Source: an uncultured Chryseobacterium sp.
GTDB lineage: Bacteria; Bacteroidota; Bacteroidia; Palsa-965
Direction of reading: 5' to 3'
DNA: 50,735 nucleotides
Assembly (NCBI GenBank): GCA_964447465.1
Contig: CAYUTR010000003.1
Span: 1-50,735 of the forward strand
Part shown: in pieces, positions 4,349-37,490 of the stretch
Layout: every line of letters begins with the position of its first letter
Numbering within the stretch: the first letter of the stretch is position 1
Notes under the pieces: generated by a model
Seen by the model: the letters and a program-made list of their open reading frames with translations, nothing else
What the model was told of the DNA's origin: nothing
Databases searched by the model: none
Program-made: the position numbers and the translations under genes

Positions 4349-4353
4349 CGTTG

Positions 4354-17153: not shown

Positions 17154-17269
17154 AGTTAAAGCGCAGTGTGTTGCGAACGATGTAGCGCCTATTCGTTAGT
17201 GGGGATGCCGAAAATCTTCAATTCATTAACGTTACGTGGTAATTAAATGCGGAGCCGGAAGACAAATAG

Positions 17270-17899
17270 TTATTTCATCGAGTCGTTCGTCCGTAGTGTT
17301 TCAGGCAGGTTACTGATATAGCCTGTTGCGCCTGGGTGAAGTGGACCCACAATCGACCACGCGCCTGAACGTGCAGGAGTGATAACCACCTCGCTAGTTG
17401 GTTTGATGGTATCGGTTGGTGTGACAGTTATTATACCGACGCCGCTGTCCTCAAAATGCATCTGCATCGGCAGTTGGTAGTAGGAACAATATACTGTGTT
17501 GATTACCTCGTTGCGGTCACGACCGAGTGCCACCCACATGTTGATTTCATCATTAATGATCTGACTTTCGGTTTTGTTAGGAGAGATGAGATAACCGTTG
17601 GTGCGCACATGCAGACCAATACCAGCTCCGAGCACGATTCCGACGAGCAGGAATGCAATAGGCCAGGGTGACACCCGATTACGCATGAGCTCCGCGATCA
17701 CCGCCACTCGCGACGGTTTTGTTTCGGTCGTATCTGTTTTGTCCATCTTGATGCCAGCAAGCACGGTTGCGAGCGTAACAAGCAAGGCCACAAGCGAGGT
17801 AATGACGGTGTTGATCACGGGAGATACGGCCATGCCTATCAGCCATCCAAATGTTAGACCAATGACCAGTACAGCGAATACGTTCGAGAGAGATTTCAT
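17270..17899 (-). CDS. Membrane protein with about 3 TM helices
   Basis: Three hydrophobic segments in the N-terminal half; start assigned to MKSLSNV. Confidence 0.6.
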   Translation of the reverse strand: MKSLSNVFAVLVIGLTFGWLIGMAVSPVINTVITSLVALLVTLATVLAGIKMDKTDTTETKPSRVAVIAELMRNRVSPWPIAFLLVGIVLGAGIGLHVRTNGYLISPNKTESQIINDEINMWVALGRDRNEVINTVYCSYYQLPMQMHFEDSGVGIITVTPTDTIKPTSEVVITPARSGAWSIVGPLHPGATGYISNLPETLRTNDSMK

Positions 17900-18016
17900 T
17901 GTGTAGCGATTAGCGGTTGGTATGCCAATAGTATGAATTTCCGACCAGACTGAAAGGGCACTCAAATAAACTAAGCTCTAGTCCATTTTCGGAAAGCTCA
18001 GGATCTCTCCTTTCGT

Positions 18017-18166
18017 CGAGATGTTCGCAACCTCAAAAGGAATGTCGCAAAGTACGGCCACACGCACAGTCACTACGTTCCACAAGATTGCATTTACCAA
18101 TGGTAAACCACTTTGGTAAATGCAATCTTGGTTAAGGGGCGACCCTTAACAATCCCGAACATCTCG
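18017..18166. other. Structured element; candidate origin of transfer (oriT)
   Basis: Perfect 18-bp inverted repeat (18083-18100/18113-18130) ending in ATCTTG, an 8-bp GCGA hairpin, and an enclosing 11-bp inverted repeat. Confidence 0.5.
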
Positions 18167-18238
18167 CAAGCGCAAAGGACAAGCGCAGCAAGTCCAATGC
18201 TATGCGATCTGATTTAAAATGCTTCGAAGTCACCGCGT

Positions 18239-19279
18239 TTAAAGACCGAACATGATCCGCTCAGAACCATTCACGAAATTAAGATAAAGAGGGCCGACAA
18301 GTGACGGAACGACTTTAAGTTGAATTTCCACGCTGTCGTCCTGATAAAGTGAAACTGTTGTGGCCGTGCTGACAGCCTCATTGCTGTTATTAGCTAGAAT
18401 CCTGATCGAGTCCAAGTCCAAATTGGATATCAATCCGTCATCATTCGAAAGAAAGAAGTGAGCATTGGTTTGAAACGGGATGAAAAAACGGCCGAAGTCA
18501 GTATTCAGAAGTGTAACAGTAATTTGCGGCTCTTTGTGCGTCACCGAGATAGTGATCTGACCAACAGTAATCGATTGATTTAGATCTCCCCAAATGATTG
18601 TGTCGTTTCGTTTGAATAATCTCCTAATTAAGACATCGACATTAGTGTACGGATTCGTCGTGGCATGTTTTAAGGCATTTAGATCAGCGCCTTTTTTATG
18701 TCTTAACCATGCAGCATTTTCCAAAACGTGCTCGTTGCGAGACTGCACAACTTGATATACATTATATCCCCATTTCTTATTATAGTCAGGAATGTATTTT
18801 TCTCTTATGCGATTCGCAGCGCAACGTACTCCTTTACAATCTAAAGGATGATCTTTTCCTGGTTTACCACAATCAAAATGTTTTTCACCTTCCTTGCAAT
18901 CTGATTTTGCGTATGCAATTTGGTTCTTTTCGTAGTGAAGCAAAACCCAATGTTCAAAGGCAACGCTCGAATAGCCAACATTGACGATTCTACCGTCAAT
19001 TATCTGTGCGGCATCGGTTAGAGCCTGAGTTGGAACATCGCCATCTTTATCAAAGACTGCCCAAACCTCCGTATGTGTTTTAGATTTTTTCCGTGCGAGA
19101 TTTACCAAAGCCGTCGCATCATTGGGGCTCTTTGAATCTTCTGGATACACCGTGATAGTTACGTCCCACGTGTTTTGCACTTCATCACGAATCGCCTCAA
19201 AATATCTCCTTTCTGATACAGCTCCTTCACAGGCAATATAAATCGTGTGTGGTGCCGGTTGCTTCTTTATAACTCGCAT
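18239..19279 (-). CDS. rloB: RloB-like (TOPRIM-related) protein with a C-terminal extension
   Basis: YIACEG..SERRYF, VWAVFDKD, SSVAFEHWVLLHYE, NPYTNV. Confidence 0.85.
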   Translation of the reverse strand: MRVIKKQPAPHTIYIACEGAVSERRYFEAIRDEVQNTWDVTITVYPEDSKSPNDATALVNLARKKSKTHTEVWAVFDKDGDVPTQALTDAAQIIDGRIVNVGYSSVAFEHWVLLHYEKNQIAYAKSDCKEGEKHFDCGKPGKDHPLDCKGVRCAANRIREKYIPDYNKKWGYNVYQVVQSRNEHVLENAAWLRHKKGADLNALKHATTNPYTNVDVLIRRLFKRNDTIIWGDLNQSITVGQITISVTHKEPQITVTLLNTDFGRFFIPFQTNAHFFLSNDDGLISNLDLDSIRILANNSNEAVSTATTVSLYQDDSVEIQLKVVPSLVGPLYLNFVNGSERIMFGL

Positions 19280-19288
19280 ACCAATTAG

Positions 19289-20575
19289 TTATTTTGTCGG
19301 AGGAAACTTGATACCTGTTTCATTGATTTTGGGTTTCGCGCGCATATTCCCAGCATCATACCATTCTGCCAATGAAACATCATCAGGAACGTTGTCAAAA
19401 TCCTGAGCAGAATAAAGTTCTGTTGAACCATATTGATTTTTCTGAGCGAACCATACCTGATCCTTTCTTAAAAAGGTTTTGTCGATCAATGAAATGTCGT
19501 GTGTAGAAAATATTAGTTGCGCGTTGTTAGGGTTACTTACAGCATCGTTAAACAATTTTACAAATAACGCGCAGAGATCAGGATGAAGACTTGAGTTTAA
19601 TTCGTCAAACAATCCGAAGCCGCCTGTATCAATCATTTGTGCAAAAATTCCACCGAGACCAACGAATGATTTTGTTCCATCAGAAGCAGTTGGAAAAAAT
19701 TGAAACTCCTTTGTGCCAACTTCGTGCTTATCCTTAAAACGCTTGTGCTTGGTGTAAGGAGTATAGTCCTCAGGCGATGCTGAAGCATTTGGTGTTAGCC
19801 CACTAGAGTCCTTTTTTTCCTCGACTCTCATGCTCATTGTTTGGAGATCGGCTTCACTGATTAAGCGATTGATCCATTCATTCGTTTTATTATTACCCCC
19901 ATTTTCATTCATGGATTTGAGTGCCGTGAACAAAAGTTGTCTGCGGGCATCCGCATTATTTGCGTCCCAAATAAGTGTGGTTAGAAGGCTTTTATATACC
20001 GCACCCATGAAGTCGTCAGCATGATTGTTTGCCAGATCAGACAACGCCAGACGTTGAGCTATTATTTTGTTCGGTAAACTTCTATTTTCGAGGGCGACTC
20101 CGTATGTGACTGAAGCTCCCGATCTCGTAAAAAGGCGTTGAAAATTTCCATCGGAGTAATGCTCAAGATCTTCCGAAAGGAATTCTGTAGCCGTATGAGA
20201 GAATTGGTAGCGGAATCGTGTAAGATTCGTTCCAACAAATTCGAATAAATATGATGTGGGCTTGTCTTGCATCGTATCTTCCAATTCATACGGATCATAT
20301 TCAATGGTGCTCTCCAAATTATTGCTAGCGCTGGTCTCAACTAATCTGCAAAAACTATTAAAGGCTCTAAGGAAATTACTTTTCCCGCTAGCGTTTGGCC
20401 CGTAAATCGCAACCGTTTTTAATAGTTTTACTGTTTGATCTCCGGACAGTTTCAGATCAAATGTATTTTCAGCACGGTTGGGTATCTTAGGATTCGCCTC
20501 CATGCTAAAAATGAGTTCATCACAGATTGATCTGTAATTGGAAACTCGGAACTCAATAAATTTTGGTTTACTCAT
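19289..20575 (-). CDS. RloA-like AAA/ABC-type ATPase
   Basis: IYGPNASGKSN, SDGT, FDELNSSLHP, AQLIFSTHD, LRKDQVWF. Confidence 0.88.
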   Translation of the reverse strand: MSKPKFIEFRVSNYRSICDELIFSMEANPKIPNRAENTFDLKLSGDQTVKLLKTVAIYGPNASGKSNFLRAFNSFCRLVETSASNNLESTIEYDPYELEDTMQDKPTSYLFEFVGTNLTRFRYQFSHTATEFLSEDLEHYSDGNFQRLFTRSGASVTYGVALENRSLPNKIIAQRLALSDLANNHADDFMGAVYKSLLTTLIWDANNADARRQLLFTALKSMNENGGNNKTNEWINRLISEADLQTMSMRVEEKKDSSGLTPNASASPEDYTPYTKHKRFKDKHEVGTKEFQFFPTASDGTKSFVGLGGIFAQMIDTGGFGLFDELNSSLHPDLCALFVKLFNDAVSNPNNAQLIFSTHDISLIDKTFLRKDQVWFAQKNQYGSTELYSAQDFDNVPDDVSLAEWYDAGNMRAKPKINETGIKFPPTK

Positions 20576-20617
20576 TATCGTTGTTTTCTTTCTCGTTCAA
20601 TTGAACCCTTTGAAGTT

Positions 20618-21577
20618 TCACGGATTATCTTTTTTGAATCTCATATTTATCGTGAGATTGCCACGCTTGACAATACTTTTTTCAGTATTGATTGTAGCAA
20701 TAATGGTCTTAACCGTTGGTCGTTTCACCGGGTCTTTTGATAGCATTGTGTTGATTAATGTCACTAACGTGTCTGGAAATCTATGAGCATTTTTGACAAC
20801 AATCTTTCCGCCATTATTTACGACGTTAGATGCGTATTTATCGGACGATACTCCTTCAGGATATTCTCCACTTAAGATTTGGCAAAAAACAATCCCCAAC
20901 GAGAAAATGTCAGACTTGAGAGAAATTTCTGAAGTTGCTATTCCAGAACCTGTCTGTACATACTTTTCAACTTCCGGGGAAAAGTAGGTTAAATCACCAA
21001 TAATATTTTCAGCTTGCGGTGGGTTGTGATAAAAATATCCATTGTCATAATCAATCAAGTATGGCACGAAAAAACCTGCCGGATCTTTTTCGAAAAGAAT
21101 ATTCTGTGGCTTAATATCACCATGAACAATTCCTGCGTCGTGTAGTATTTTTAATGATTCAGAGATTACTCTCAGAATAAACGTCCTCTTTTCAAGAGGA
21201 AGTCGAGAAATTTCGGCAATTGAGAGTGAAGCCGAATTAATTTTTCTCGTGACCTTATAGTATTTGGCGTTGACGCGAAAAAAGTCTAATGTTTGTACAA
21301 GGTGAGTATCAAATATTACGCATGGATCTATTGTTTCTTTCAGCGCATGGTGCTGCTTCTCAAACTCTAAACATAAAGCTCGCTTTTTGATTTTTTTAGT
21401 TTCGCTCCCCGGTGATCCAATAATAGGAAAGGTCGGCGCCAAAAACTCTTTCATGAAATAATAAATGCCTCTTTTTCTTACAAATGTCCAAGTGCTACAC
21501 CCTGCATTCTTGTTAGAGAAGGGAGCTCCATCCACACCAGCTACTTCGTATCCATTTATTATTTCGCCGATCTTCAT
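20618..21577 (-). CDS. Ser/Thr protein kinase
   Basis: FMKEF, HGDIKPQNIL, IDYD, YFSPE, SDIFSLG, RPT. Confidence 0.92.
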   Translation of the reverse strand: MKIGEIINGYEVAGVDGAPFSNKNAGCSTWTFVRKRGIYYFMKEFLAPTFPIIGSPGSETKKIKKRALCLEFEKQHHALKETIDPCVIFDTHLVQTLDFFRVNAKYYKVTRKINSASLSIAEISRLPLEKRTFILRVISESLKILHDAGIVHGDIKPQNILFEKDPAGFFVPYLIDYDNGYFYHNPPQAENIIGDLTYFSPEVEKYVQTGSGIATSEISLKSDIFSLGIVFCQILSGEYPEGVSSDKYASNVVNNGGKIVVKNAHRFPDTLVTLINTMLSKDPVKRPTVKTIIATINTEKSIVKRGNLTINMRFKKDNP

Positions 21578-23211
21578 TTGGCGTCAATGTTTTTCAAATA
21601 CCTTTCATATTGAGCTTTATACTTTTGCCAAAGCGCTCTCTTGAGTTTATCCCTGGTGTCCTTAACACCTTTCAGTTCTTTCGCTTCTGGAGTATTTTCT
21701 TCAATTCTGTTCTGCTTTTTGAACGCCGATAGGTCAGACTTTAGATCTTTTGAATCAGCTTTAACTTTTTCAAATTCCGAATCCTCATAATCAATCCGCC
21801 TTTTTAAATCTTCTCTTTTCTTCTCAAGTTCATTTAGTTCTCGAATCTTTTGCTCAATAAGGTTTGACGTTTTTCGAAATTCATTTTCTGCATCATTGAT
21901 TGATCTTTCAATTTGATCCGCTAAATCACCAAGAGACCTGATCCTCATCTCAAAGCGATTAATTTCTTCTTGAATTCTTTGATTCCTTTCAACTGTTTCG
22001 CGCATAGATAGCTCGAGTGCGTCGGTCTTCCTATATGTGTCAGTTAGCTCTTCAATATCAACAGCCAGTATTTCACTTCTCTTTCGGAACAAATGTTTCA
22101 AATCGCTAAACGAGCTACATCCAACTACGCTTAATGCAATAGAAATATCATCACTTTGATCTCGCTGTAGTTGGACGATTAATTTGGATTTCCACTCCTC
22201 AATTGTCGAAGCCTTAAGTAGAGTATTTAATAGTAAGTACTCAAAATGGATTGGTGTTTGTAAATATCCAAATGCACCGTCTGTAGCAGCAAAAATTATT
22301 GAAGGGACTTTAACTGTATGGCTTGCAATATTTATTTTGTAATCTCTATCAGCATTTACACAGTTCGAAATTGGCGAGTCACTAACCAAGTTCTCAAACG
22401 CGTCATTTTTGTCTACAAGATCATCGATGGTTAATTGCTGCAAGCCCTCGTTTGGATCTAACACATATATTCTTGAATCTCCGGCCCAGAAATTATTTAT
22501 TTCAACCTGCTTGTCAGTGCTTTTTAAATGCGCTATCGCAAAAGTTGTCGGGAGTTTTTTAATTAAGCTGCTTTTAATTTTGAGTTTAGGATTACCTCTT
22601 TTTTCGATTTTCTCAAGAATTTTTGAGAGGCCGGTATTGATATGCTGTTTTAACTCAGACGCAATTTCTTTCTGAGTGTTACTGGAGATTTCTGCTCCGT
22701 TAGTTATCAATGCAGCAAAATATTTCTCAGCTATCGAAATAACTGCACGAGAAGCTAAATATGCACCGCTGTGTTTTCCATCGTCAATTTCGTAAATCGT
22801 TCCGCCAGCGCCACCCATGCCATCAGCAACACCAATCACCGTAGAATCGTCATCAAACTGAATCAATGTTGCTGGCGAATCTTCTCCCTTTCCACTAATC
22901 TTTTCAAGATCAACAGTAAGGTTAAAGGCCTTGTTCGGAGTAATTTGATGTACTTTAGTTTTGTCCTCAGGTACTACTTGTACTTGCTTATCTTTATTGT
23001 GAAATTTGAGATTTGAAACCTCTCCAATTTTTTTGTCCTCCGTTGAGACCTTCGCATCACTTTTATTATTTAATGAGTCGGTTACGGGAATTTCTCTTCT
23101 TTCCTCTTTCGCAGTCTTCTCCAATGGTGTTGGGCCATTTTCAGGCTTCACCGTTCCGGTATCAATCGACAAACCGAAAAACTCAAAAACTAGCTTTATC
23201 CTTTTATTCAC
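21574..23211 (-). CDS. PP2C-family phosphatase with a long C-terminal coiled coil
   Basis: GVADGMGG, WAGDSRIY, ATDG, SDD; long E/K/R-rich heptad tail. Confidence 0.88.
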   Translation of the reverse strand: MNKRIKLVFEFFGLSIDTGTVKPENGPTPLEKTAKEERREIPVTDSLNNKSDAKVSTEDKKIGEVSNLKFHNKDKQVQVVPEDKTKVHQITPNKAFNLTVDLEKISGKGEDSPATLIQFDDDSTVIGVADGMGGAGGTIYEIDDGKHSGAYLASRAVISIAEKYFAALITNGAEISSNTQKEIASELKQHINTGLSKILEKIEKRGNPKLKIKSSLIKKLPTTFAIAHLKSTDKQVEINNFWAGDSRIYVLDPNEGLQQLTIDDLVDKNDAFENLVSDSPISNCVNADRDYKINIASHTVKVPSIIFAATDGAFGYLQTPIHFEYLLLNTLLKASTIEEWKSKLIVQLQRDQSDDISIALSVVGCSSFSDLKHLFRKRSEILAVDIEELTDTYRKTDALELSMRETVERNQRIQEEINRFEMRIRSLGDLADQIERSINDAENEFRKTSNLIEQKIRELNELEKKREDLKRRIDYEDSEFEKVKADSKDLKSDLSAFKKQNRIEENTPEAKELKGVKDTRDKLKRALWQKYKAQYERYLKNIDAK

Positions 23212-23877
23212 TTAAATGCTATTGGCTATGGCATCAATTATGGCACTGTAATCATGTTCTTCAAGTCCTTCTCCAGCTCGCGAAGTATAAATTATTGTGT
23301 TATCCCAGGTCGCTATTTCTTTCCATGGATAATCTTCTGGGCCATAAATAATTAATCGTTTAGCGCTGAATTCCTGATCGTCCCAGAGATCAGTCAATTC
23401 GTCAAGATTTTTTGGAAGATCTGAAGGATAATTTGGAAGGTATGAGCCAGCTCCTTTCTCTAGTTTGTGGGCTGGAGCGTCAGTGTACAAAACAATTACA
23501 CGTCGATGTTTTCCTTCACCTTTATTCCATTCAGATTTCATAGCTAACGCCAGTGCTTCTAATGAACTTTCTGGGTCGTCACCACCACCATCAGCAACTA
23601 TTGTACTCACGAACATCGAAAAGTTAGTTTTCTGAACGGGAAGAGAATAGAATGGAGATAGCTCCATTGCATTTTTCCCATCAGCAAAATAATCTCTGAA
23701 CTTAATCACCTTCACACGAAGAACGTCTATTCCTTTACCCTTGATTGTAAGATTGTCGGTCAAATCTTGATGAAATTTGATCGCATTTTCTTTTACATGA
23801 TCAATTACTGGCGCCATACTACCGGTAGCATCAATGCAAAGGACAATGTCCACCGTGTACTTCATTTGTTGGCTCAT
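23212..23877 (-). CDS. vWA domain protein
   Basis: MIDAS motif DIVLCIDATGSM, GGGDDPES, LYTDA. Confidence 0.9.
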   Translation of the reverse strand: MSQQMKYTVDIVLCIDATGSMAPVIDHVKENAIKFHQDLTDNLTIKGKGIDVLRVKVIKFRDYFADGKNAMELSPFYSLPVQKTNFSMFVSTIVADGGGDDPESSLEALALAMKSEWNKGEGKHRRVIVLYTDAPAHKLEKGAGSYLPNYPSDLPKNLDELTDLWDDQEFSAKRLIIYGPEDYPWKEIATWDNTIIYTSRAGEGLEEHDYSAIIDAIANSI

Positions 23878-24256
23878 AGTAGTAGTCTAAATTTGGGTGT
23901 AAAAGTAGAGAATTTGTAGATGGGGGCTTGTTTTAGCTGAAAACAAGGACATTCCGCATCGAATGAAACCATTTGTAAATCAAGGCTTTAGACCAGTACG
24001 ACACGTGATTCTCAAAACAACCTTTTGACTCAGGGTTTCAGTTTAGGGTCTAATCCTCTATAAAAGTACCAAATCTTAGAAATTGGACGTTAGCTAATCA
24101 CGTCAGACGTCGGCTTTTCGGAAGCCATTTACGTTTAAATCAAACGGTATACTTTTGCAGGACTAGGCAAATAATGGTCTTGCGGACTTTTTCTTTGACA
24201 GCGACAAATCAAGGCCGGCTGAGAAGACCATTCCAACTTTAATAAAAATTATCACA

Positions 24257-24490
24257 ATGAAAAACACAATGATGATATATGGTCATCTGATTGATGGCAA
24301 CACATTTTCGGTTTCTCCGATTGATGGCGAAACTTTAATTAAGAAAGTGTGGACGGATGATTTTGGTGTGCCGCCTGAGGCTTTGATCTTTGATGCTAGT
24401 ACGGAATCAGGGGAACGTGTGCGAATTGTAGTTCCATTTTCAAAAACTCAAGAGTCGTATGCGATTATCGGAAACCCACAAATGAAATGA
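24257..24490 (+). CDS. Hypothetical protein
   Basis: ORF with A-rich start; TACTTTTG promoter box near 24150. Confidence 0.6.
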   Translation: MKNTMMIYGHLIDGNTFSVSPIDGETLIKKVWTDDFGVPPEALIFDASTESGERVRIVVPFSKTQESYAIIGNPQMK

Positions 24491-24960
24491 CGGATAAAGA
24501 AGAAAAGCACTTAACACAATTAAGGACGCACTCGGCAGAAACTGATAAGCTTAAAGGCTATGCAATTCAGCGAATCGATCTGCTTATTATTTCTGTAAGC
24601 GGAGCGAGCATCTATTTATCTCTAGAGATAATGAAATACATGCACGAAGCAAATCTTGCCTGGAGTAATTGGCCATTCAAACTCGCCGGCTTGTTATTCG
24701 TGTTGTCAATCGTTACGAATTTTCTCGGTCAATGGGCCGCGCACAATTCATCACATCACATGAAGTGTTCTACTGATGCAGAGATTTACTGGCGTCAATA
24801 TCATGGAGGCGCAGATTTACAGAAGCCATCTACAATTGCCATGCATGATCAAAAATTCACGAACTATACCAAGTATGTTTCGTGGGCAAATGTTACCTGC
24901 ACAAGCTGTATGCTAGCGGGTCTTTTTGTATTAATTTTCGCTGTACTGATTATTTTTTAG
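24487..24960 (+). CDS. Three-TM membrane protein
   Basis: Three hydrophobic segments; 4-nt overlap with the upstream ORF. Confidence 0.65.
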   Translation: MTDKEEKHLTQLRTHSAETDKLKGYAIQRIDLLIISVSGASIYLSLEIMKYMHEANLAWSNWPFKLAGLLFVLSIVTNFLGQWAAHNSSHHMKCSTDAEIYWRQYHGGADLQKPSTIAMHDQKFTNYTKYVSWANVTCTSCMLAGLFVLIFAVLIIF

Positions 24961-25090
24961 GTGGCGGTGGTGGTTTTGGGCCTGGAGCCTGTGGCGGAAA
25001 GTTTTTTAATCGCTCTCGTTGTGGCGGAGGATTGTTGGGCCTAGGTTGTGGCGGTGGCGGTGGTTTGGGTGGATTTTTATCTGAAGACAT
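24950..25090 (-). CDS. 46-aa proline-rich micropeptide
   Basis: Hand-translated MSSDKNPPKPPPPPQPRPNNPPPQRERLKNFPPQAPGPKPPPPPKK. Confidence 0.55.
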   Translation of the reverse strand: MSSDKNPPKPPPPPQPRPNNPPPQRERLKNFPPQAPGPKPPPPPKK

Positions 25091-25170
25091 TGTTATAAAT
25101 TGAACTTGCAATTTATATAAACTGCAATCATTCTTGCGAATAATTTAGTTCACACAAACGACACTTGAGA

Positions 25171-25240
25171 ATCACCCCCGTATTTATACGGGGGTGATAA
25201 AGGGGGGTATTTATACTGGTTTTTACCCGTATTTATACGT
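25171..25240. promoter_or_regulatory. Three copies of the GTATTTATAC operator core
   Basis: Cores at 25180, 25207 and 25229; the first lies within a palindrome with 13-bp arms; same motif as at 37427 and 38109. Confidence 0.75.
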
Positions 25241-25375
25241 GGGTAAAAACGGGCATTTTAGAGGTTTTTAACTGAAAATGAACCTACTACGAAAGGACTA
25301 TTTGGTTCATTTCATCAGTTTATTGAAACATTTGTTATTACTTTGCGTTATATAACATACTCTACCTACTAAGTC

Positions 25376-25732
25376 ATGCAAACCTACGCGACAGCGCCTA
25401 AGTCATGCTCAATTTTCCGAATCAAAGATGAACTCGGTGCAAATCATGCTCAATTCTATGATCAGGGGTTGGCAATTGGTAAAAAGGTGAATTGTTCTTT
25501 AGAAAAAGGAGAACAGGTCGAAATCTCATTCGTAGGAATGCCAGAACCAAATTTTCCATTTCTTAGTGGACTTTTTGGATTAATTTTTCATCAATATTCG
25601 GTTGAAACTGTGAAAAATTTACTTCATTTGTCACACGCAACCGCCGATGTGAAAGCTGATATTGAAGATGTGAGATGGCGTGCTGATAACATTGAGTTTC
25701 ACAATGAAGTTCTCTATTCGGAAAAAGAGTAG
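25376..25732 (+). CDS. STAS-like (DUF4325-type) protein
   Basis: DQG..I...V...L..GEQVEISFVGM....PFLSGLFG pattern; upstream of a PIN gene. Confidence 0.65.
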   Translation: MQTYATAPKSCSIFRIKDELGANHAQFYDQGLAIGKKVNCSLEKGEQVEISFVGMPEPNFPFLSGLFGLIFHQYSVETVKNLLHLSHATADVKADIEDVRWRADNIEFHNEVLYSEKE

Positions 25733-25749
25733 AGTTTGCAATCCATTAT

Positions 25750-26358
25750 ATGATTTCTCCATTACCTGCAGTTCCGTCCGCTGGATTTACTTACTTATTG
25801 GACACCAACGTTTGGCTTAAGGTATTTGACTTTCCTGCTGATTTGTTCGGAGATGACTCAAAGTTCCCAAAAGAAAAAAAGCAGCGTTACGCCGAGCATC
25901 GCGGCTACTATAGTTTCGTGAGAGGCTTTACACTCACATTCGCCCCTCAGATTATTTTGCCAAGTATAGCGTTGTCCGAAATTGTTAACGTGTACATGCG
26001 GTCAAAGATGTTTCTCATCTATCAAAAAAAACACGGTTTTCATAAACAGTACAAAGAACACTATCGACCTAGTTGGGAACATCGGAGAGACTTTAAAAGG
26101 ATTCAAAATGGGATGCTTAGTTATGAGAGATGCTGCATACAAACAAATGATGGATTTGGCACCGCTCACACCATTTCCTCCGCGTTGAAGTATAATTCAA
26201 ACAAATTAGATTTTGCAGATCATTATATGTACGCGATTGCTAAGAAAAGAAATTGTGTGCTTGTAACTCATGATGCCGATTACAGCGTGTGTAACGACAT
26301 TCCAATCCTTACTTTGAATCAGAACATGCTTCCTAAACCAGGTAGCGCTTCAGCATAA
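25750..26358 (+). CDS. PIN domain ribonuclease
   Basis: YLLDTNVW, ALSEIVN, LDFADHY, LVTHDADY. Confidence 0.88.
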   Translation: MISPLPAVPSAGFTYLLDTNVWLKVFDFPADLFGDDSKFPKEKKQRYAEHRGYYSFVRGFTLTFAPQIILPSIALSEIVNVYMRSKMFLIYQKKHGFHKQYKEHYRPSWEHRRDFKRIQNGMLSYERCCIQTNDGFGTAHTISSALKYNSNKLDFADHYMYAIAKKRNCVLVTHDADYSVCNDIPILTLNQNMLPKPGSASA

Positions 26359-26370
26359 TAAAAGCAGCCA

Positions 26371-26574
26371 TCAGGCTGCTTTGTTGTTGGATTCAGCTAG
26401 TTTTTTTAACATATCGAGCGAAGCACGCAAAGCTGCGATATAATTCTCTTTCTCCGCCCGATTGTAGTACCCCGAAATATCGTCTGAATAATCTTCCTTC
26501 AAGAGTTGGAACTTCTCAATTTCTGAATTGATCTGCTTTTCAAATGCTGAAACTAATTCCGCTACTGTTTTCAT
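26371..26574 (-). CDS. Small helical hypothetical protein
   Basis: Start assigned to MKTVAELV. Confidence 0.5.
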   Translation of the reverse strand: MKTVAELVSAFEKQINSEIEKFQLLKEDYSDDISGYYNRAEKENYIAALRASLDMLKKLAESNNKAA

Positions 26575-26712
26575 GGTTGTCTTGATTGGTTCTCCCAATA
26601 ACCCAATCGATGAGTTACCAAGAGAGCCAATCAATAAAACGACCAAAGTAGAATCGCAGTTCTCCCCAAATAGTAGCATGTTATAGTTTTTTGTCAAGTG
26701 GTAGAAATACCG

Positions 26713-27531
26713 CTATCTGTGGCGAGACTTGCCCCTTGCTTTGCGCTTCGATTGCAGGCGATTGAGGGCTTTTTCAACATCAAAGTCCAACTGTACACCT
26801 AATGTTCCGAAGCGAAACTTTCTATTGTCTTGGACAACTCCATATAGCTTTCCTCCGCGCACATAAACCTCCAAGTTCTTTCTTTGGAGTTGAACGAGGA
26901 AGTCCTCTTGCGATCTCGCTTGCGCCTGACATTCGAGCACTGCTTCACGAACTTTCTCGTGAATCGATACTTTCTTCATTCGTTGTTTCATCTGCACTTC
27001 CTGGTCGTTCACGCGCAGTTTCGATTTTCTACCATGTGCAACCACAGACTTCGTGAGTTCTCTAAAATTCGTGATTTGGTGCTGTTGAACTTGCTTCTTA
27101 ATATCGCCGAACTCTCCGCGGCTCATGCGCATTGCTTTCCCGGTCGTATCGACGCCTGACACCAGAAGATGTACGTGGTAGTGTTCTTTATTGTAATGTG
27201 GTATCGCCAAAACTTTCGCACCGCGGACGCCAACGCGCAACCGGATATACTCTCTAGTCATCTGTTCCATCTTCTCGGCAGTGATGTGTCGCGCGTCATC
27301 TTTGTGCCAGGATAGAATCTCATGCGTCATGGTCACACTATCTTTTCTGCGGAGTACACGCCCTACCTCAAGCTCTTTGAGCTGATTCACCCAACTGTCA
27401 ATTTTGTTTCCTTTTAGATTATGCGCAACGACAAATCCCTCGCGACCGGACAGTCGATCGTTGTCGTGCAGCATGTATTCAATGAGCTGACGATAGGTTT
27501 TATTTTTCCTTGATTTTATCTTGACGATCAT
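26713..27531 (-). CDS. MOBP-type relaxase
   Basis: N-terminal LIEY; HEILSW; HUH motif HYNKEHYHVHLLVSG. Confidence 0.88.
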   Translation of the reverse strand: MIVKIKSRKNKTYRQLIEYMLHDNDRLSGREGFVVAHNLKGNKIDSWVNQLKELEVGRVLRRKDSVTMTHEILSWHKDDARHITAEKMEQMTREYIRLRVGVRGAKVLAIPHYNKEHYHVHLLVSGVDTTGKAMRMSRGEFGDIKKQVQQHQITNFRELTKSVVAHGRKSKLRVNDQEVQMKQRMKKVSIHEKVREAVLECQAQARSQEDFLVQLQRKNLEVYVRGGKLYGVVQDNRKFRFGTLGVQLDFDVEKALNRLQSKRKARGKSRHR

Positions 27532-28072
27532 GTGAGGTGATCAGTTGCAGCAAGTGAGCTTTAATATCAAGAGATTGGTTCAGTGCATCGCATAAAAGTT
27601 GTTCGAGTTTGGGTGGACTACTCAAATGTTCACGAACACTCGTTTCAAGCAGTATGATTCGTGCTTCAATGCTTTCGATCTTCTGATCTCGTTGCCAGAA
27701 GTATTTCTCACGAACTCCAGCGAGAGCCTGAATCTCATTGGCGCATTGAGCCAATAGCTGCTCCAGGTGAGCGAGAAACGCACGATCCGGCACGATATAC
27801 GTCTCAGTGAGATATGCCACAGCAGAGGCGCGTATAAACGCGGCCAGAGTCATTTTGTGTTTGCGTGCACCTGCAGCAATGCGCTCGTAGGTTCCATCTG
27901 CGCGAGAGAAGGCGACAATAACCTCTGGATTTTCTTTGAGCTGTTGTCGGCGATGGTTGTAATGGTAGGTCTTCCAATAACCGCGTTTCGCAGCGGCGAT
28001 CTCGTCAGGCGATCCTGTTTCCAGAATTCCCAACGCATCAAGATGCTTCCATAGACCACTACGCTTTCGCAT
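27500..28072 (-). CDS. Relaxosome accessory (MobC-like) protein
   Basis: RHH-like ARKHKMTLAAFIRASA and CANEIQALA; lies between the coupling protein and the relaxase. Confidence 0.5.
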   Translation of the reverse strand: MRKRSGLWKHLDALGILETGSPDEIAAAKRGYWKTYHYNHRRQQLKENPEVIVAFSRADGTYERIAAGARKHKMTLAAFIRASAVAYLTETYIVPDRAFLAHLEQLLAQCANEIQALAGVREKYFWQRDQKIESIEARIILLETSVREHLSSPPKLEQLLCDALNQSLDIKAHLLQLITSHDRQDKIKEK

Positions 28073-29519
28073 TAGATCGCTTTGATTGCGGTAATGGCAG
28101 GATTGGGACAACGCCGAATCCTGCACCGACCATTCGCGGAGGCGTGAGTTCACTGTGTGCGCGGAACGTCGAGTCCTTATAATAAGGACGAAGCTTCGCT
28201 TTGATCGGTGGATTGTGACCACAAATGATCAGCGCTTCGCTCGATGACATCGTACGGATTTCCGATGCGCTCATAAGGCTACGAGTAATAGTCTTGCCTT
28301 TCTCATCCTTGTAATCGAATTCACCCATCAGATCGGAGAGTTCTTTCGCCGTATCAAGTGGTTGTCCCGTGAAGTACATTTTCGCAAAGCAGTTAGCGCG
28401 GATGGCTTCTGCATCTTCGCGTCCATAAATGCTCACAAGTTGATTGTAGTCCTGCACAAGTAGCATAATTCCTGCGCGGCTCTTACGTACGTTCGCAATC
28501 GACAGTTGTAGATTTGGAAAATGTAACGAGGACGCTTCGTCGATCAGGAAGAATATATCGAGTTCGTTTTCTTTCGGTATTCGTGACAGGACATATCCGA
28601 AGAACTGTTCCAGGAAGAGCGAGGTAAGTATTGAGTAATACTTGACGTCACCTACTGACGTTTGCAGGAAGAGCGCTGTTGGACGTTTACGGAAGTTGTC
28701 GAAGGAAATGGAATCGACGCTCGTCACTTGCGCGACAGCGTTATCTCCAAGCAAAGTGAGAGAAGCAAGGCAGGTCGCGATAACACCGCTTCGTACCTTC
28801 TCGTCCAGGCCAACGAATGATTTGTAAGCAAGCCAGAGAGCAGGATCATTTTGTGCGTGCTTTGCATACAGCTGGTCCACGGCATCCGGATCGCCGCTCA
28901 TGCTATTAAGTAAGTAGCGCAGATTCGCAAGGTTGCGATAGGGTTCCGCTTCGAGATGCAGTGTCGCAATAAGCGCGGCAAGCAATGAACTCGCTTGGGA
29001 ATTCCAGAACGGGTCTTTTTTCCCTTTGCCGAGCGCGTTGTCAATAAGCATTGATGCGATCTTCTGCATTTCTGAAGATGTCTTTGCGCGTGCAACAGGA
29101 TTGTACCCGCAGGAGATTTCCGGCTTGGCGAAGTTGAGTACGCGCACGTCGTATCCACGGTCAACAAGCGACGCTGCGCTTTTCTCAAACAGTTCCCCCG
29201 ACGGATCATGCACAACAAAACTGCCTCGCATTTTGTAGAGCGACGGCAACAGCACGACGCTCGATTTGCCGACGCCAGTTCCACCGATGATGAGCGCATT
29301 GGAGTATGCATCTTTCGCACTGAGAGAACGCCTACCGGTCAAACAAAAACCCGCTGCATTCCTACTGAGTAATTCTCGTTCGCTGATAAAGTTTGAAGTA
29401 TGTGCGTGTTTGCGCTTGCCGACACCCGAGATGAATGTCTCAAGCGTTTCGCCGAGCAGCCCGAACAGGGATTCGAGCAGTGAGATTATAAGTTCAAGGA
29501 TTTTTTCGATTAGGATCAT
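28059..29519 (-). CDS. Type IV coupling protein (TraG/VirD4 family)
   Basis: GGTGVGKS, VVHDPSGEL, GYNP, DPFW, LIDEA, VQDYNQL..IYG. Confidence 0.92.
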   Translation of the reverse strand: MILIEKILELIISLLESLFGLLGETLETFISGVGKRKHAHTSNFISERELLSRNAAGFCLTGRRSLSAKDAYSNALIIGGTGVGKSSVVLLPSLYKMRGSFVVHDPSGELFEKSAASLVDRGYDVRVLNFAKPEISCGYNPVARAKTSSEMQKIASMLIDNALGKGKKDPFWNSQASSLLAALIATLHLEAEPYRNLANLRYLLNSMSGDPDAVDQLYAKHAQNDPALWLAYKSFVGLDEKVRSGVIATCLASLTLLGDNAVAQVTSVDSISFDNFRKRPTALFLQTSVGDVKYYSILTSLFLEQFFGYVLSRIPKENELDIFFLIDEASSLHFPNLQLSIANVRKSRAGIMLLVQDYNQLVSIYGREDAEAIRANCFAKMYFTGQPLDTAKELSDLMGEFDYKDEKGKTITRSLMSASEIRTMSSSEALIICGHNPPIKAKLRPYYKDSTFRAHSELTPPRMVGAGFGVVPILPLPQSKRSNAKA

Positions 29520-29691
29520 CGTTACGTCTGTCGTTAGGAGTAATGAGAGACTTCACCCAATCACCAAGCACGCGAGCGGCGAATTCTATGCCACGCAGAC
29601 ATGCCCACACGCAAGTCAGAAACACTTTCCAGCAGAGCATCAAGAGAAACTTGATGCAGTTGCCGAGAAGCTGTTTCAGATTTTCTTTCAT
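29494..29691 (-). CDS. Small membrane protein
   Basis: Hydrophobic 65-aa ORF inside the operon. Confidence 0.55.
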   Translation of the reverse strand: MKENLKQLLGNCIKFLLMLCWKVFLTCVWACLRGIEFAARVLGDWVKSLITPNDRRNDDPNRKNP

Positions 29692-29699
29692 GGATTGGG

Positions 29700-30479
29700 T
29701 TATTGATTCGTTTGAGCGATTACGTTCGCAGCGACAATGACTTTCGCGCCATGAGATTCAAGTAAAGTCTGGTAGAACCCTGCGACCAAGCGAAAGAGTT
29801 CATCCTGTGCTGCGTTTTCCGGTTGAAAAATCAGATAAACACTGATGCCGGTTAAGTCTTTCAAATCTGCTTTCGCAATCAGCATAGCGGTAATCTTGTT
29901 CGGATCAGTGCGAAGTGATCCAATGGTTTTCTTGTCATAGAAGGAAACGGTTTTGTCGTTTTCCATCAGATCGCTGTACACAATCAGCGTGCGCTCGGCC
30001 GAATGACTTTCAGACAATCGGTTCAATTCGTTAGCAATTGGGAGATAGACAGAAGAGTGCGGACGACCAACAGTGTCGACCGCGCGCGCAGCGAAAAACG
30101 ATCTGATGCTATCCTCAAATTTTTCTACTTCTCTGTCGCGCGTAAACCCGCTTGAAGTAAGCCGGTTTCCCCCTGGCGCAAGAGAAAATGTCGTTCGACG
30201 ATTGAAGCTCACATCGGTTAGATCGGCATAAGAGAATTCAGCGCCATCCCATTTGTTGGTGTCGAGACCATAGAGTCCGATGATCTCATTCGCATCAGGT
30301 TTTGCAATCTGCGCTTCCGTAAGATCAACTTGAATGACTATCTCAATCGTATTGCGCTTCGGGCATTGCTCATTGCATGATCCACTGAGGACAAGCATGC
30401 ATAGGAGTAAAAGTGCGATCGCACCTACGACGTATGGTGTCGGATCAAATTTATTTCTGGTTGGTTTTGCGTTCTTCAT
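29700..30479 (-). CDS. Membrane-anchored or lipoprotein, vWA-like
   Basis: N-terminal TM and LSGSC; VDLTE...LIVYSDLMEN. Confidence 0.6.
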   Translation of the reverse strand: MKNAKPTRNKFDPTPYVVGAIALLLLCMLVLSGSCNEQCPKRNTIEIVIQVDLTEAQIAKPDANEIIGLYGLDTNKWDGAEFSYADLTDVSFNRRTTFSLAPGGNRLTSSGFTRDREVEKFEDSIRSFFAARAVDTVGRPHSSVYLPIANELNRLSESHSAERTLIVYSDLMENDKTVSFYDKKTIGSLRTDPNKITAMLIAKADLKDLTGISVYLIFQPENAAQDELFRLVAGFYQTLLESHGAKVIVAANVIAQTNQ

Positions 30480-30482
30480 GGG

Positions 30483-31532
30483 TTATCGGTTTTGGGTTAG
30501 TGGCGTGAGTGGAGGTACTGGATCACAGAAGCAGTCCGGTGTGAGTTTGTCGTCGCGGTGTGCAAGCAGCGTGCTCTTAAACGCTTCTGCGGTTTCGTTG
30601 TACAGGGTAGCGATTCGTGCTGTCGCGTGATTCGCAAGACTTATGATCTGCTGATGGTGCAACGCCTGTTCACGCGCCTGATCCTCGAGCTTGTCTTTCT
30701 CAGTTTTAAGCCCTGTGATCTTATCTTCCCGCTCGAGGATTGCTTCATACTTAGCGCGAAGCGCACGGTCCGCTTGTGCTTCCTCTTTCTTCGGGAAGAA
30801 GAAATACGACGCGAGCATCGAACCGATAAACAGGAAGAGATTCACCACTGCAAATATTCCTGGGTGTACGGAAGTCTCTCCCGTGCTACCTAGCATTGTC
30901 GCTCTCCAGGAAGACAGCACAGCGATAAGGGCGAGCGCAGGAATCGCAAGTGCGGCAACACCAAGATAAAACTTGCGGCCTTCGTTCTGTGCACGAGCAA
31001 TCAGGTACATGATGCCGCGAGAGAACAGGTACATTCCTGCGGTGATGCTAGCTGCAATGAAGAGTGAAAATAGCAAGCTATCGCCCATGAACTCGAAGCT
31101 CCACGCATTGAAGACCAATTCGCCGAGGTAGATCAGCGCAAGTATCACAACACCTTTCCAGTTGGAAGTGTGTCGCATGTCAGGCACTTTGCCGTCGAGC
31201 TCGTGTTTGGCAATGGTGTTCTCGTGCGTCAGACGCGCGATGTTGCTACCTATTTCCGTTTGCTTGTGTTCAAGCGCGGTCCCGTTTGTACGCATCTTCG
31301 CATCGTGCATGTCCGGCTGAATGAGTTGTAGCACTTGCGCGCGTAAGTCCTCATATCCGCTTTTAATAAAGCCGATGTAGGGTTCGAGCTTGTCCATCAC
31401 TCCGGGACGATTCTGCATGCCGAGGAATTTGGCCTCCTTGATCGCTTTCGATTTGAGTTCAGCATCCTTTTCAAGAATGCGCTTCTCTAATTCAGGATAG
31501 GTGTGACCGTATGTGTTGTTGTTAGTGCTCAT
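30483..31532 (-). CDS. 4-TM membrane protein with coiled coils
   Basis: Four central hydrophobic helices flanked by heptad regions. Confidence 0.7.
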   Translation of the reverse strand: MSTNNNTYGHTYPELEKRILEKDAELKSKAIKEAKFLGMQNRPGVMDKLEPYIGFIKSGYEDLRAQVLQLIQPDMHDAKMRTNGTALEHKQTEIGSNIARLTHENTIAKHELDGKVPDMRHTSNWKGVVILALIYLGELVFNAWSFEFMGDSLLFSLFIAASITAGMYLFSRGIMYLIARAQNEGRKFYLGVAALAIPALALIAVLSSWRATMLGSTGETSVHPGIFAVVNLFLFIGSMLASYFFFPKKEEAQADRALRAKYEAILEREDKITGLKTEKDKLEDQAREQALHHQQIISLANHATARIATLYNETAEAFKSTLLAHRDDKLTPDCFCDPVPPLTPLTQNR

Positions 31533-31547
31533 GGTTTTTGTTTTAGG

Positions 31548-31820
31548 TTAGCGTGTAATGTGTTTGCGAGAAGCTGTTTTGTTTGTGCGGATGTCGCGTA
31601 GTTCTTGCTCCGGTGTGCTCCGCCAATCTTCCAATAAATCCGTTGCATGCGTTGATGCCATGTCGATTGCGTTTCGCAAATCACTCGTGCAGACCCCGCC
31701 GTCGAGCGGCTCCCGTTCATCTTCGGCGATGTCATTCACTGATCCCGCATAAATGTTGTATTCGAAATCACCGTCGCCGCGCTCAAAGACTTCTATCGTG
31801 ATCTCTTTGGGTTTGCTCAT
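31548..31820 (-). CDS. Hypothetical protein with a ...ITR tail
   Basis: In operon; shared C-terminal motif. Confidence 0.6.
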   Translation of the reverse strand: MSKPKEITIEVFERGDGDFEYNIYAGSVNDIAEDEREPLDGGVCTSDLRNAIDMASTHATDLLEDWRSTPEQELRDIRTNKTASRKHITR

Positions 31821-31832
31821 TGACGGTTGTTG

Positions 31833-32393
31833 TTAGCGGGTAATGCCCTGTGATTTGTCTTGCTGATTCTCCCTGAGCGCAGCAAGCTCTTGTGATGGAC
31901 GCGAATCAATTTCCTGTGTCTGTTCCTCCGGGGATTCCTGTGCGTGCGGCGCCGACACTTCATGTTCAACCTCCTTCTCATCGAAGACCACGCTGTGTCC
32001 TTGCTCTCTCGCATTATTCATCCACTGTTCAAGGAACTCGTTCAAATCTCTCTTGAGCTTCGGACGCAAGTATGTCTGACCGTCGTGCTCCTCATATATT
32101 TGCTGATAGACAAATTGGTTTTGAAAGGTTAATGCTTCGGCAGTCTTCTGTTCCGGATCAATGCGCACCTCCATATCGGGATCGGGCACCTGGTCACCAT
32201 TTGATTCAAAGTAGTGTGCGAAAGCGACTATGTGTGCGTCACCATCTTTGCGTAGGTAATCGTAATGCAAATCCATGAAGGGTTCCGACTTGGATTTTCC
32301 TGAAGCTGTTCCTTGCGTGAGATGCGTTTCGAGGTCTGGAATGATCTTGCCGATGTTGGCATATATACGTTCGTGTATGTTGGTTTCGGACAT
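31833..32393 (-). CDS. DUF1249-like protein with a ...ITR tail
   Basis: PFMDLH...AHYFESNGDQVPDPDMEVRID...AEALTFQN. Confidence 0.65.
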   Translation of the reverse strand: MSETNIHERIYANIGKIIPDLETHLTQGTASGKSKSEPFMDLHYDYLRKDGDAHIVAFAHYFESNGDQVPDPDMEVRIDPEQKTAEALTFQNQFVYQQIYEEHDGQTYLRPKLKRDLNEFLEQWMNNAREQGHSVVFDEKEVEHEVSAPHAQESPEEQTQEIDSRPSQELAALRENQQDKSQGITR

Positions 32394-32405
32394 AGTGATT
32401 ATTAA

Positions 32406-32840
32406 TTAACGAGTAATGTCTTGCGACCTATCTTTTGATTTCGCGCCACGATTACGAATTTCTTTGAGTTCTTCCGCTGGATTTTTCTCGGGTGGTGGAA
32501 CAGGCTTTGGTTCGAGCTCAGGTGTCTTCTCTTGGCTGATCTCCTGTTTCTTTTCAAGTTCCTCAAGCGCCAGTTCGTGTCCATGCTTCGCAAATCGCTT
32601 TTCGATGTCCACATAGGATTTGGAAACACCGAGCACTTCTTTGCCGTCAGCACTTTTAGCGGTGTATGTTTTTTCTTCTCCGACTTTATCGAAGTAGATA
32701 CGTCCAATCACCACCTTCTTTTCTTCACCGGGAACGGTTTGCAGCACGGTTGTCATGTGCTGGCCCTTATTCCATCGGCTATATTTCTGGAAGATCGTTT
32801 TGCCTTTGGGTTGGTCGAGAGATTGCTTTTCGGTGCTCAT
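32406..32840 (-). CDS. Hypothetical protein with a ...ITR tail
   Basis: First gene of the mobilization operon; start assigned to MSTEKQ. Confidence 0.65.
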   Translation of the reverse strand: MSTEKQSLDQPKGKTIFQKYSRWNKGQHMTTVLQTVPGEEKKVVIGRIYFDKVGEEKTYTAKSADGKEVLGVSKSYVDIEKRFAKHGHELALEELEKKQEISQEKTPELEPKPVPPPEKNPAEELKEIRNRGAKSKDRSQDITR

Positions 32841-32930
32841 GGTGCTTTGGGTTTGCACTTGAGATACCATTCAGAAATCCGATTTCGGACACGCGCTCGG
32901 GAAAATTCTTCGGAGGGAATCGCTAATTCA

Positions 32931-32963
32931 GGGTGCGGAAGGGTGCGGTTTTAGGGTGCGGAA
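32931..32963 (+). repeat. Three GGGTGCGG repeats; putative arm-type sites (right)
   Basis: GGGTGCGGAAGGGTGCGGTTTTAGGGTGCGGAA. Confidence 0.65.
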
Positions 32964-33025
32964 ATGTTCGGAAATCCCTCAAAATGGCACACTATCAGCA
33001 CAATGAGAGCACCTGAGAGCGCATC

Positions 33026-33071
33026 ACTGTTAATCATGGGGTCTCTGGTTCAAGTCCAGAAGGGGGAGCAG
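33026..33071 (+). repeat. attR: duplicated tRNA-Asn 3' half, from the anticodon loop onward
   Basis: Identical to 1-37 over 33035-33071; no D-arm or 5' acceptor strand upstream. Confidence 0.9.
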
Positions 33072-36825: not shown

Positions 36826-36948
36826 TCGTTGTTTGTTATAACCCGCCACGAAGATATGATTCATACGTTCCTGCATTTAACCGCTTACTACTTCTCCAAA
36901 AAAAGGACGTCCCATCAATTGCTTGACGGGACGTTTCCCCCCTTTTAA

Positions 36949-37469: not shown

Positions 37470-37490
37470 CGCAAAACACATATTTGCTCT

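Follow-up and report, generated by a model that had tools for sequence, protein, structure and literature searches.

Three palindromic sites at positions 25171-25250 of a stretch of DNA from an uncultured Chryseobacterium sp. probably form a functional operator of a chromosomal NarL-type response regulator encoded in the same stretch (34740-35387), which would place an island-borne DUF4325/PIN gene pair in the regulon of the host. The window, that is, the whole stretch analyzed (50,735 nucleotides), is contig C3 of the source genome, labelled G000; G- labels denote genomes and L- labels denote loci. From sequence comparison, we put the probability of this reading at about 65%. The repeated motif appears to be the operator of the adjacent NarL-type two-component system, and the comparison ties it to the regulator because the link between arrays and regulators is conserved, the operon family is widespread, the operator words are private to lineages, and the regulons co-vary.

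Architecture of the proposed operator sites

An exact-match search placed the 10-mer GTATTTATAC on the + strand of the island at 25180, 25207, and 25229 (core spacings of 27 and 22 bp), in agreement with an initial annotation of the sequence, which had noted these three cores and the 22-bp spacing of the last two. The same 10-mer forms two oppositely oriented pairs on the chromosomal side, at 37433 (+)/37455 (-) and 38115 (+)/38137 (-), with 22 bp between the cores of each pair. These seven occurrences compare with a mean of 0.06 in 100 dinucleotide-preserving shuffles of the window, none of which reached seven. The 10-mer is the center of a 7-2-7 palindrome, CCCGTAT-WW-ATACGGG, which was found at all seven loci of the genome that are listed below; each of them has the inverted heptamer-like half-sites and the short spacer of NarL/FixJ-type operators. 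The sites in the window are as follows:

25171-25198, no strand: operator site 1, a perfect 13-2-13 palindrome of 28 bp, ATCACCCCCGTAT-TT-ATACGGGGGTGAT, with its core at 25180-25189
25203-25220, no strand: operator site 2, degenerate, with just the GTATTTATAC core at 25207-25216 intact, 27 bp from site 1
25219-25250, no strand: operator site 3, CCCGTATTTATACGTGGG within a 10-12-10 inverted repeat, with its core at 25229-25238, 22 bp from site 2
37427-37475, no strand: pair of chromosomal operators, spaced by 22 bp, that precedes the two-component operon
38109-38155, no strand: second chromosomal operator pair, between a small-protein paralogue and the DUF3606/HNH genes

Site 3 has a single mismatch, and site 2 is flanked by GG...TG where CC...GG is expected. 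Sequence alignment bore out the claim that the first core lies in the long palindrome and shares a word with the chromosomal operators, as ACCCCCGTATTTATACGGG is common to 25174-25192, 37427-37445, and 38109-38127. Sites 2 and 3 together make a canonical double site, 85% similar over 53 nt to 37411-37464, and their spacer is a T-tract like that of the chromosomal pairs (GGTTTTTACC vs GGATTTTACC). An 818-nt contig of run X2, probably from the source sample and not independent, is identical to the window over 25129-25946. The 12-mer CGTATTTATACG was not found in literature text, where the 10-mers matched unrelated papers only.

The regulator is chromosomal and the island encodes none

To the right of 33.1 kb, the genes are ordered PfkB, regulator, kinase, 7TM protein, small protein, and divergent DUF3606/HNH, and the same order was found in G007 and G014. 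Because these two genomes share the order of the PfkB and operon genes, we take the regulator to be chromosomal and the island array to lie on integrated, mobilisable DNA. The genes concerned are the following:

34740-35387, - strand: NarL/LuxR-type response regulator (Response_reg + GerE), the proposed binder
35381-36190, - strand: HisKA_3 histidine kinase, short
36163-36876, - strand: multi-pass membrane protein ('7TM'), the likely sensor partner
36949-37266, - strand: small conserved protein (MAFDG...PCPPWC), first gene of the operon
37644-37973, - strand: small-protein paralogue, 48% identical
26713-27531, - strand: relaxase of the MobA/VirD2 type, island gene
28059-29519, - strand: type IV coupling protein (T4CP), island gene
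33016-33071, + strand: partial tRNA-Asn copy, of which 33035-33071 is identical to positions 1-37 of the window; right end of the integrated DNA

The 37-bp att-like direct repeat (1-37 = 33035-33071) corresponds to the 3' end of tRNA-Asn. Clusters of GGTGCGG stand beside both tRNA-Asn copies (115-133 and 32932-32961), and the repeats and clusters are probably the att and arm-type sites of the integrase encoded at 160-1548. The contig begins inside the repeat, and the integrated DNA may be one 33-kb element or several. The G+C content is 0.37-0.41 across 20-27 kb, the region holding the island array. In G007, tRNA-Asn is directly upstream of PfkB, and a blastn comparison of the window with 45 kb around that locus gave no match for 17148-33015 and short stretches only further left.

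The initial annotation also held that the island encodes no NarL regulator, and we confirmed this for 1-33071: tblastn with 35 regulator queries found no GerE/NarL homologue (best E 0.03, short fragments), and Pfam scans of the larger open reading frames (ORFs) of the island part found no GerE/NarL domain. The predicted target thus lies on acquired, mobile DNA, as marked by the relaxase, the T4CP, the tRNA-Asn repeat, and the low G+C content, and the regulator is encoded beyond that DNA.

Seven arrays in the genome

The G000 assembly (5.08 Mb, 544 contigs) contains GTATTTATAC 30 times on both strands, 17 of these in seven clusters and 13 as scattered singles. The longer 14-mer CCGTATWWATACGG occurs at 12 sites, all inside seven arrays on C3, C27, C49, and C302. 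The scan with this 14-mer located them as follows:

C3 25178-25240: array 1, on the island
C3 37431/37453: array 2, chromosomal
C3 38113/38135: array 3, chromosomal
C27 6759/6781: array 4, on a second mobile element
C27 12551/12573: array 5, on the same second mobile element
C49 14358-14420: array 6
C302 4422-4483: array 7

Three of the seven arrays sit on two mobilisable elements without a NarL-type regulator (one on C3 and two on C27). The three island cores first described are real but gave too narrow a picture, as the genome has seven arrays, two of them on C27, and four of the seven elements examined in matching hosts lack the motif. The arrays on C49 and C302 also have three sites each, the outer ones weak. 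Apart from the regulator, the arrays have no DNA-binding candidate in common, and the genes flanking them share no paralogues. We considered a dispersed repeat element of the REP/MITE kind and ruled it out, since there are seven loci only and their flanks are mutually unrelated, so that each array is a cis-element in its own right.

Another explanation would make the array a structural part of the mobile element, such as the iterons of a replication origin, a site for transfer (oriT) or recombination, or a terminator hairpin after the upstream genes. Direct repeats ~22 bp apart are typical of iterons, a relaxase gene lies 1.5 kb away, one C27 array abuts the 3' end of its relaxase gene, and the array DNA folds strongly (z = -5.9). 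However, the sites also precede chromosomal operons at loci that have no mobile genes, neither Pfam nor NCBIfam revealed a Rep protein, and 10 of the 13 related relaxase elements lack the motif. The fold merely mirrors the palindromes, and a terminator scan of 24800-25800 returned 0 terminator-like sites, with no T-tract site or T-run hairpin. Rfam gave only a sub-threshold snoRNA match, taken as chance. The distribution of the motif already largely refutes a structural role, which we consider very improbable.

Proposed operators next to NarL-type regulators in other genomes

The orthologous operon of G007 carries a site pair with 22-bp spacing at the same position. A blind double-site scan of 185,579 species genomes (one per species) returned 16 stretches, three of which (L032, L040, and L035) are directly beside a NarL-type two-component system. 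In L032 and L040, which come from distant assemblies, the pair is immediately upstream of a small/7TM/kinase/regulator operon, and in L035, it is immediately upstream of another NarL-type regulator. Arrays were also found beside other NarL-type systems in L012 and L013 (L035 and L012 have no small protein). In G008, G041, and G048, the sites next to regulators are weaker and stand singly or in pairs, and metagenome locus L110 has a pair beside DUF3606/HNH genes 76-88% identical to those of the window. The arrays are thus linked to a cognate GerE-type regulator in G007, L032, L040, L110, L035, L012, and L013.

The metagenome scan as a whole gave 39 stretches. Most of them carry another, TA-centered repeat, CCGTATATATACGG, and were set aside as apparently unrelated (L085, L087-L089, L091-L094, L096, L098, L099, L101-L107, L109, L112-L118, L120, L122, and L123); these repeats form pairs 21-22 bp apart, often beside GTATCC runs, on contigs with similar record names. 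The TT/AA type is limited to nine loci (L086, L090, L095, L097, L108, L110, L111, L119, and L121), all of which lack DUF4325 and PIN.

The small protein that heads the operon was found in 48 of 401 genomes of the class and 28 of 199 genera (a count that includes G210, flagged unpublished), and a regulator lies downstream of its gene in 15 of the 20 regions fetched. Palindromic repeats ~22 bp apart precede the small gene in most of 28 regions, and their words vary by lineage (for example TAGTACaaGTACTA, TAGGGAGttCTCCCTA, TGTCGGaaaaCCGACA, GGGGGTAattTTACCCC, and CCCGTAaaaaTACGGG). Besides the window, the small/7TM/kinase/regulator operon was seen at L010, L011, L014-L018, L032, L040, and L124-L143. 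We regard the family as uncharacterised, on the basis that neither the small nor the 7TM protein has a Pfam or NCBIfam model, its name not having been searched in the literature.

The small protein is acidic, ~105 aa long, and begins with MAFDGKEGE; it carries the motif MAFDG...GCVGIR...PCPxxC...LNS with a conserved C-terminal CPxxC...LNS tail. It matched nothing in Pfam, NCBIfam, or a PDB profile search (best E 0.12), and inspection alone revealed no hydrophobic leader. The suggestion that the system serves signaling, for example density-dependent signaling, found no backing here, as no synthase, exporter, or secretion signal was recognized with Pfam and NCBIfam and the small protein is acidic and without such a leader.

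Could the sites be genuine operators of a different factor common to G000 and G007, either another NarL paralogue or the MAFDG protein itself, with the adjacent regulator merely co-regulated? G000 does encode four further NarL-type homologues (34-37% identity), and the small protein is always encoded by the gene next to the arrays. Yet arrays also occur beside NarL-type regulators without the small protein (L035 and L012), and the small protein, besides being acidic, has no DNA-binding domain recognizable by Pfam, NCBIfam, or PDB profile search. GerE dimers, moreover, would suit 7-2-7 palindromes, and the operator classes tend to follow the recognition helices, as described below. We therefore find binding by a different factor rather unlikely.

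Operator words are private to lineages

Operators of three other genomes, searched in five genomes, gave 10, 3, and 16 forward hits in their own genome and 0-1 in the four others; likewise, a scan of G000 gave 12 sites for the native type and no exact match to any of five foreign types. The 14-mer CCGTATWWATACGG was found in 7 of 101 relatives (a count that includes G013, flagged unpublished). Upstream of DUF3467, G000 (C302) and G007 have three sites of the CCGTAT type, and G014 has two repeats of its own type.

Across 24 operons, which are partly kin and not independent, the operator classes tend to group with variants of the regulator recognition helix. Within the genus, regulators with RTVEGHRE go with the GTAT..ATAC type and those with RTVDGHRE go with CCGTAnAAACACCyG-like repeats in the same place, with L035 as an exception. 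Positions 4688-4735 of L021 (G007:C30) hold a hybrid array of one CCCGTAAAAACACCTG site and one CCCGTATAAATACGGG site, 22 bp apart, which suggests that these two operator classes are variants with a common CCCGTA half-site.

The products of the operon differ in conservation between G000 and G007: protein identity is 38% for the 7TM protein, 63% for the small protein, 81% for the kinase, and 76% for the regulator. At the nucleotide level, PfkB is 88% identical, the other shared genes 73-78%, and the kinase and regulator 76%, so that the 7TM and small proteins are the only outliers in divergence, a pattern that would be compatible with a diversifying sensor. We rejected the idea that the whole operon evolves fast, which had been drawn from the 98% identity of PfkB between the two genomes; PfkB is simply conserved. 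The 7TM and kinase ORFs of the window overlap by 28 nt.

Larger arrays exist elsewhere. In one Bacteroidota assembly, up to eight ACCGTATWWATACGGT sites with a period of 22-23 bp were observed (L027 625-798; also L030, L033, L034, L038, and L041). These arrays precede type IX-secreted LRR proteins and genes of no assigned function, and they are larger than any array of G000.

The DUF4325/PIN pair as the predicted target

Downstream of the island array lie a two-gene cassette and a promoter-like box, and on its other side a proline-rich ORF:

25376-25732, + strand: STAS-like protein (DUF4325) of 118 aa, encoded by the first of the two likely target genes
25750-26358, + strand: PIN-domain protein, 202 aa (PF01850, E = 2.4e-6)
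25338-25345, + strand: candidate Bacteroidota -7 box TTACTTTG, predicted, with one mismatch to TAnnTTTG, 30 bp before the ATG
24950-25111, - strand: Pro-rich ORF in a GGC/GGT-repetitive stretch that is Gly-rich when read on the + strand, with no support as a gene

TAnnTTTG is the Bacteroidota -7 consensus and was taken from the literature; a sigma-70 promoter scan is uninformative for this phylum. A TAnnTTTG-like box lies 104.5 bp from the center of the proximal site in three cases, namely the island pair, the regulator's own operon, and the G007 operon; at other targets, the distance ranges from 78.5 to 114.5 bp. The polarity of the T-tract spacer toward DUF4325 is, by eye, the polarity seen toward the small gene in the window, G007, L040, and L032. 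On the strength of this matching polarity and promoter-box distance, we take the DUF4325/PIN pair, not the Pro-rich ORF, to be the target of the array, with activation as the likelier sign. The proposal of the initial annotation that island genes are wired to the chromosomal regulator thus draws support from comparison, the polarity and promoter distance being those of the regulator's own operon. It had placed the array between a Pro-rich gene and the STAS-like/PIN pair; the array does face the latter, but the Pro-rich ORF is repetitive and the polarity points away from it. The repeats at 24960-25075 are GGC/GGT-rich units of GTTGTGGCGG and GGTGGCGGTGG, encoding Gly-rich sequence on the + strand and Pro-rich sequence on the - strand.

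The PIN protein matches 2 of 401 genomes, and among those found, the DUF4325/PIN cassette recurs in G359 only, where a 287-aa gene precedes the pair and the motif is not present. The acidic residues D18, E77, D154/D157, and D175/D177 of the PIN protein are kept in the G359 homologue (alignment, by eye). The 2.6-kb island cassette had a DNA match in 0 of 100 relatives. A role in defense, as originally put forward, was not borne out by PADLOC, in which, as in NCBIfam, the pair matches no model; such a role is suggested by the neighborhood alone, namely AbiL genes and a SoFic gene next to the C302 array.

One could also regard the palindromes as an autoregulatory operator of the pair itself, in the manner of type II toxin-antitoxin systems. 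The two genes form a conserved cassette, autoregulation via promoter palindromes is common among PIN toxins (VapBC), and, as in VapBC, a small partner gene stands upstream of the gene for a PIN protein whose acidic residues are conserved. In this case, however, the partner is the STAS-like DUF4325 and not a DNA-binding VapB, and the G359 pair is preceded by the 287-aa gene and lacks the motif. The other six arrays of G000 have no DUF4325 or PIN gene nearby, the genome encodes no paralogue of either, and the sites lie ~100 bp upstream of the promoter-like box, not over it. Autoregulation by the pair is hard to reconcile with this distribution and seems highly unlikely.

A further possibility is that the array is a passenger that does nothing to DUF4325/PIN today, having either arrived as host regulatory DNA through recombination or been left over from an operator now in decay. 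The degenerate site 2, the 136 bp separating the array from the start codon, and a cassette unique to G000 without a DNA match in the 100 relatives would all fit such an origin. Against it, the palindrome of site 1 is perfect over 28 bp and that of site 3 is broken at one position; spacing, polarity, and promoter-box distance copy those of the regulator's own operon; and weak outer sites are also found in the three-site arrays of C49 and C302. We consider a passenger array improbable.

Related mobile elements carry the motif facultatively

Relaxases of this family were found in 7 of 101 relatives, 13 in all, and 6-14 kb around each were inspected (20 kb for C27). G000 itself has five relaxase/T4CP elements, that of C3 and paralogues on C14, C16, C19, and C27 (L162-L164 and L001), with relaxases 40-46% identical to that of the window; only C3 and C27 bear arrays. 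The island genes beyond the T4CP, up to 32870, have homologues on C27. The expectation that related islands keep the motif only in hosts that have the system agreed with the survey: it was found in three of seven elements of G000 and G007 (G000 C3, G000 C27 with two arrays, and G007 C30) vs 0 of 6 elements of five other hosts (G016, G022 with two, G023, G024, and G027). In this small sample of related genomes, the motif-bearing elements are confined to the two hosts that use this operator. The G007 C30 array precedes a 63-aa/158-aa gene pair that is 84-90% identical to a pair on C27, with Gabija-like and TIR genes beside it. The operator wiring of mobile elements is facultative.

Points that weigh against host control of the island pair

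Several observations count against the island array being a working operator of the chromosomal regulator. The source genome was assembled from an uncultured organism, and none of the contigs listed for one sample, probably the source, spans the left junction of the array (~25126-25129; depth ~5). Site 2 is degenerate, one-mismatch matches to TAnnTTTG are common in AT-rich DNA, so that the promoter is a consensus match only, and ~105 bp upstream of the box is far for simple contact activation. The helix correlation comes down to a subtle E/D difference among kin that are not independent, with L035 carrying D beside the motif, and the operator types are related rather than distinct, since L021 pairs CCCGTAAAAACACCTG with CCCGTATAAATACGGG. 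The motif is not present in four of the seven elements in matching hosts (G000 C14, C16, and C19 and G007 C46), and neither of the G023 and G024 elements carries its own host's operator type within the 6-14 kb inspected. Finally, the regulons of G324 (nine arrays) and G295 have ordinary or unassigned genes and no mobile-element genes next to their arrays, and therefore the link to mobile elements is not general in the family.

Proposed mechanism and comparison with known systems

If the island array is indeed an operator of the chromosomal regulator, the three sites at 25171-25250 would be bound by dimers of the protein encoded at 34740-35387, one dimer per CCCGTAT-WW-ATACGGG palindrome, and the spacing of ~22 bp (two helical turns) would set the dimers on one face of the helix. 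The regulator would use the sites at 37427-37475 before its own operon and would therefore be autoregulated, and it would also use those at 38109-38155, before the small-protein paralogue. On phosphorylation, it would then most likely activate the cargo pair (25376-26358) together with the host regulon.

The case is a new example of a known phenomenon, in which acquired genes join a two-component regulon by gaining binding sites; it comes from an uncharacterised but widespread Bacteroidia system with lineage-private operators. Phages with receptors for host autoinducers are mobile elements that listen to host quorum sensing. The island would similarly couple gene expression to a host signaling pathway, but it encodes no receptor and has binding sites only. 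NarL of Escherichia coli binds inverted heptamers 2 bp apart as a GerE-type dimer. As known from sequence, the system described here likewise combines a Response_reg + GerE regulator with a HisKA_3 kinase partner; unlike NarL, it has the half-site CCCGTAT, a separate multi-pass sensor with a short kinase, and a small protein at the head of the operon. For SsrB and PhoP of Salmonella, acquired genes reportedly gain palindromic sites for the NarL-family regulator and become co-regulated. SsrB is island-encoded, whereas the regulator here is chromosomal (PfkB synteny in G007 and G014), its targets are on mobilisable elements, and its operator is lineage-private. One SsrB study presents regulatory evolution by gain of cis-elements (PMC2837388).

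The closest parallel in site architecture is BvgA, a NarL/FixJ family member of Bordetella. According to one BvgA report, at fha and ptx head-to-head dimers occupy inverted heptads with centers 22 bp apart on one helix face, and activated promoters have arrays of 3-6 sites upstream, the last dimer abutting the -35 region (PMC7250471). Here, 7-2-7 palindromes at 22-27 bp form arrays of 2-3, with up to 8 in the L027 assembly. Unlike those of BvgA, the recognizable sites stop ~105 bp before the predicted -7 box, so that the gap may be filled by weaker sites that escaped detection, or else the mechanism is a different one.

Other features of the window and related loci

To the left of the array, the island encodes an AbiLi/AbiLii-like pair (18239-20575, AAA_21 + RloB), a trio of Ser/Thr kinase (PD-T4-6-like), PP2C-like, and VWA proteins (20618-23877), and two genes of no assigned family (24257-24960). 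The region 18239-23877 is a defense-island-like cargo without operator sites. A second integrase (4565-5578) lies beside tRNA-Thr (4353-4427) and adjoins a zeta-toxin-family gene (5801-6505). NCBIfam returned nothing for 27 of the 28 array-flanking or island proteins, and the 28th, HNH, gave a far sub-threshold match. Several proteins have type IX secretion sorting domains, which mark the organism as a member of the Bacteroidota, and two caspase-domain (Peptidase_C14) proteins are encoded at 45647-48998, downstream of a giant type IX-secreted protein.

The S8 peptidase/RluA/array/DUF3467 locus on C302 (3038-4162, L003) is conserved in G007 (L022). Between RluA and the array, G000 has a SoFic-type gene, and G007 has a 23S-rRNA-IVP (bAvd-like) gene and an 83-aa ORF; the place looks like a variable cargo slot adjoining an operator array. 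In G295 (C1, ~644 and ~667 kb), two near-identical three-site arrays of the G295 operator lie 23 kb apart (L152 and L153) and are possibly the ends of a duplicated or mobile segment.

Significance

A broader idea is that of a strain-private circuit in which sensor and operator diversify like pherotypes and mobile elements copy the private word onto toxin- or defense-like cargo, as a 'barcode' or a form of eavesdropping; we hold this to be unlikely. If true, such cargo, for example DUF4325/PIN on C3 or the 63-aa/158-aa pair on C27 and in G007, would be expressed only in hosts with a matching circuit and when that circuit fires, which would limit the functional host range of the elements. If binding is confirmed, the seven arrays would define the regulon of an uncharacterised sensor system and would show the speed at which acquired toxin-like genes come under host control. 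The regulatory networks of Bacteroidota are poorly known, and this is a concrete, testable case. Because the operator words are private, regulon prediction by simple pattern search would be feasible in many genomes.

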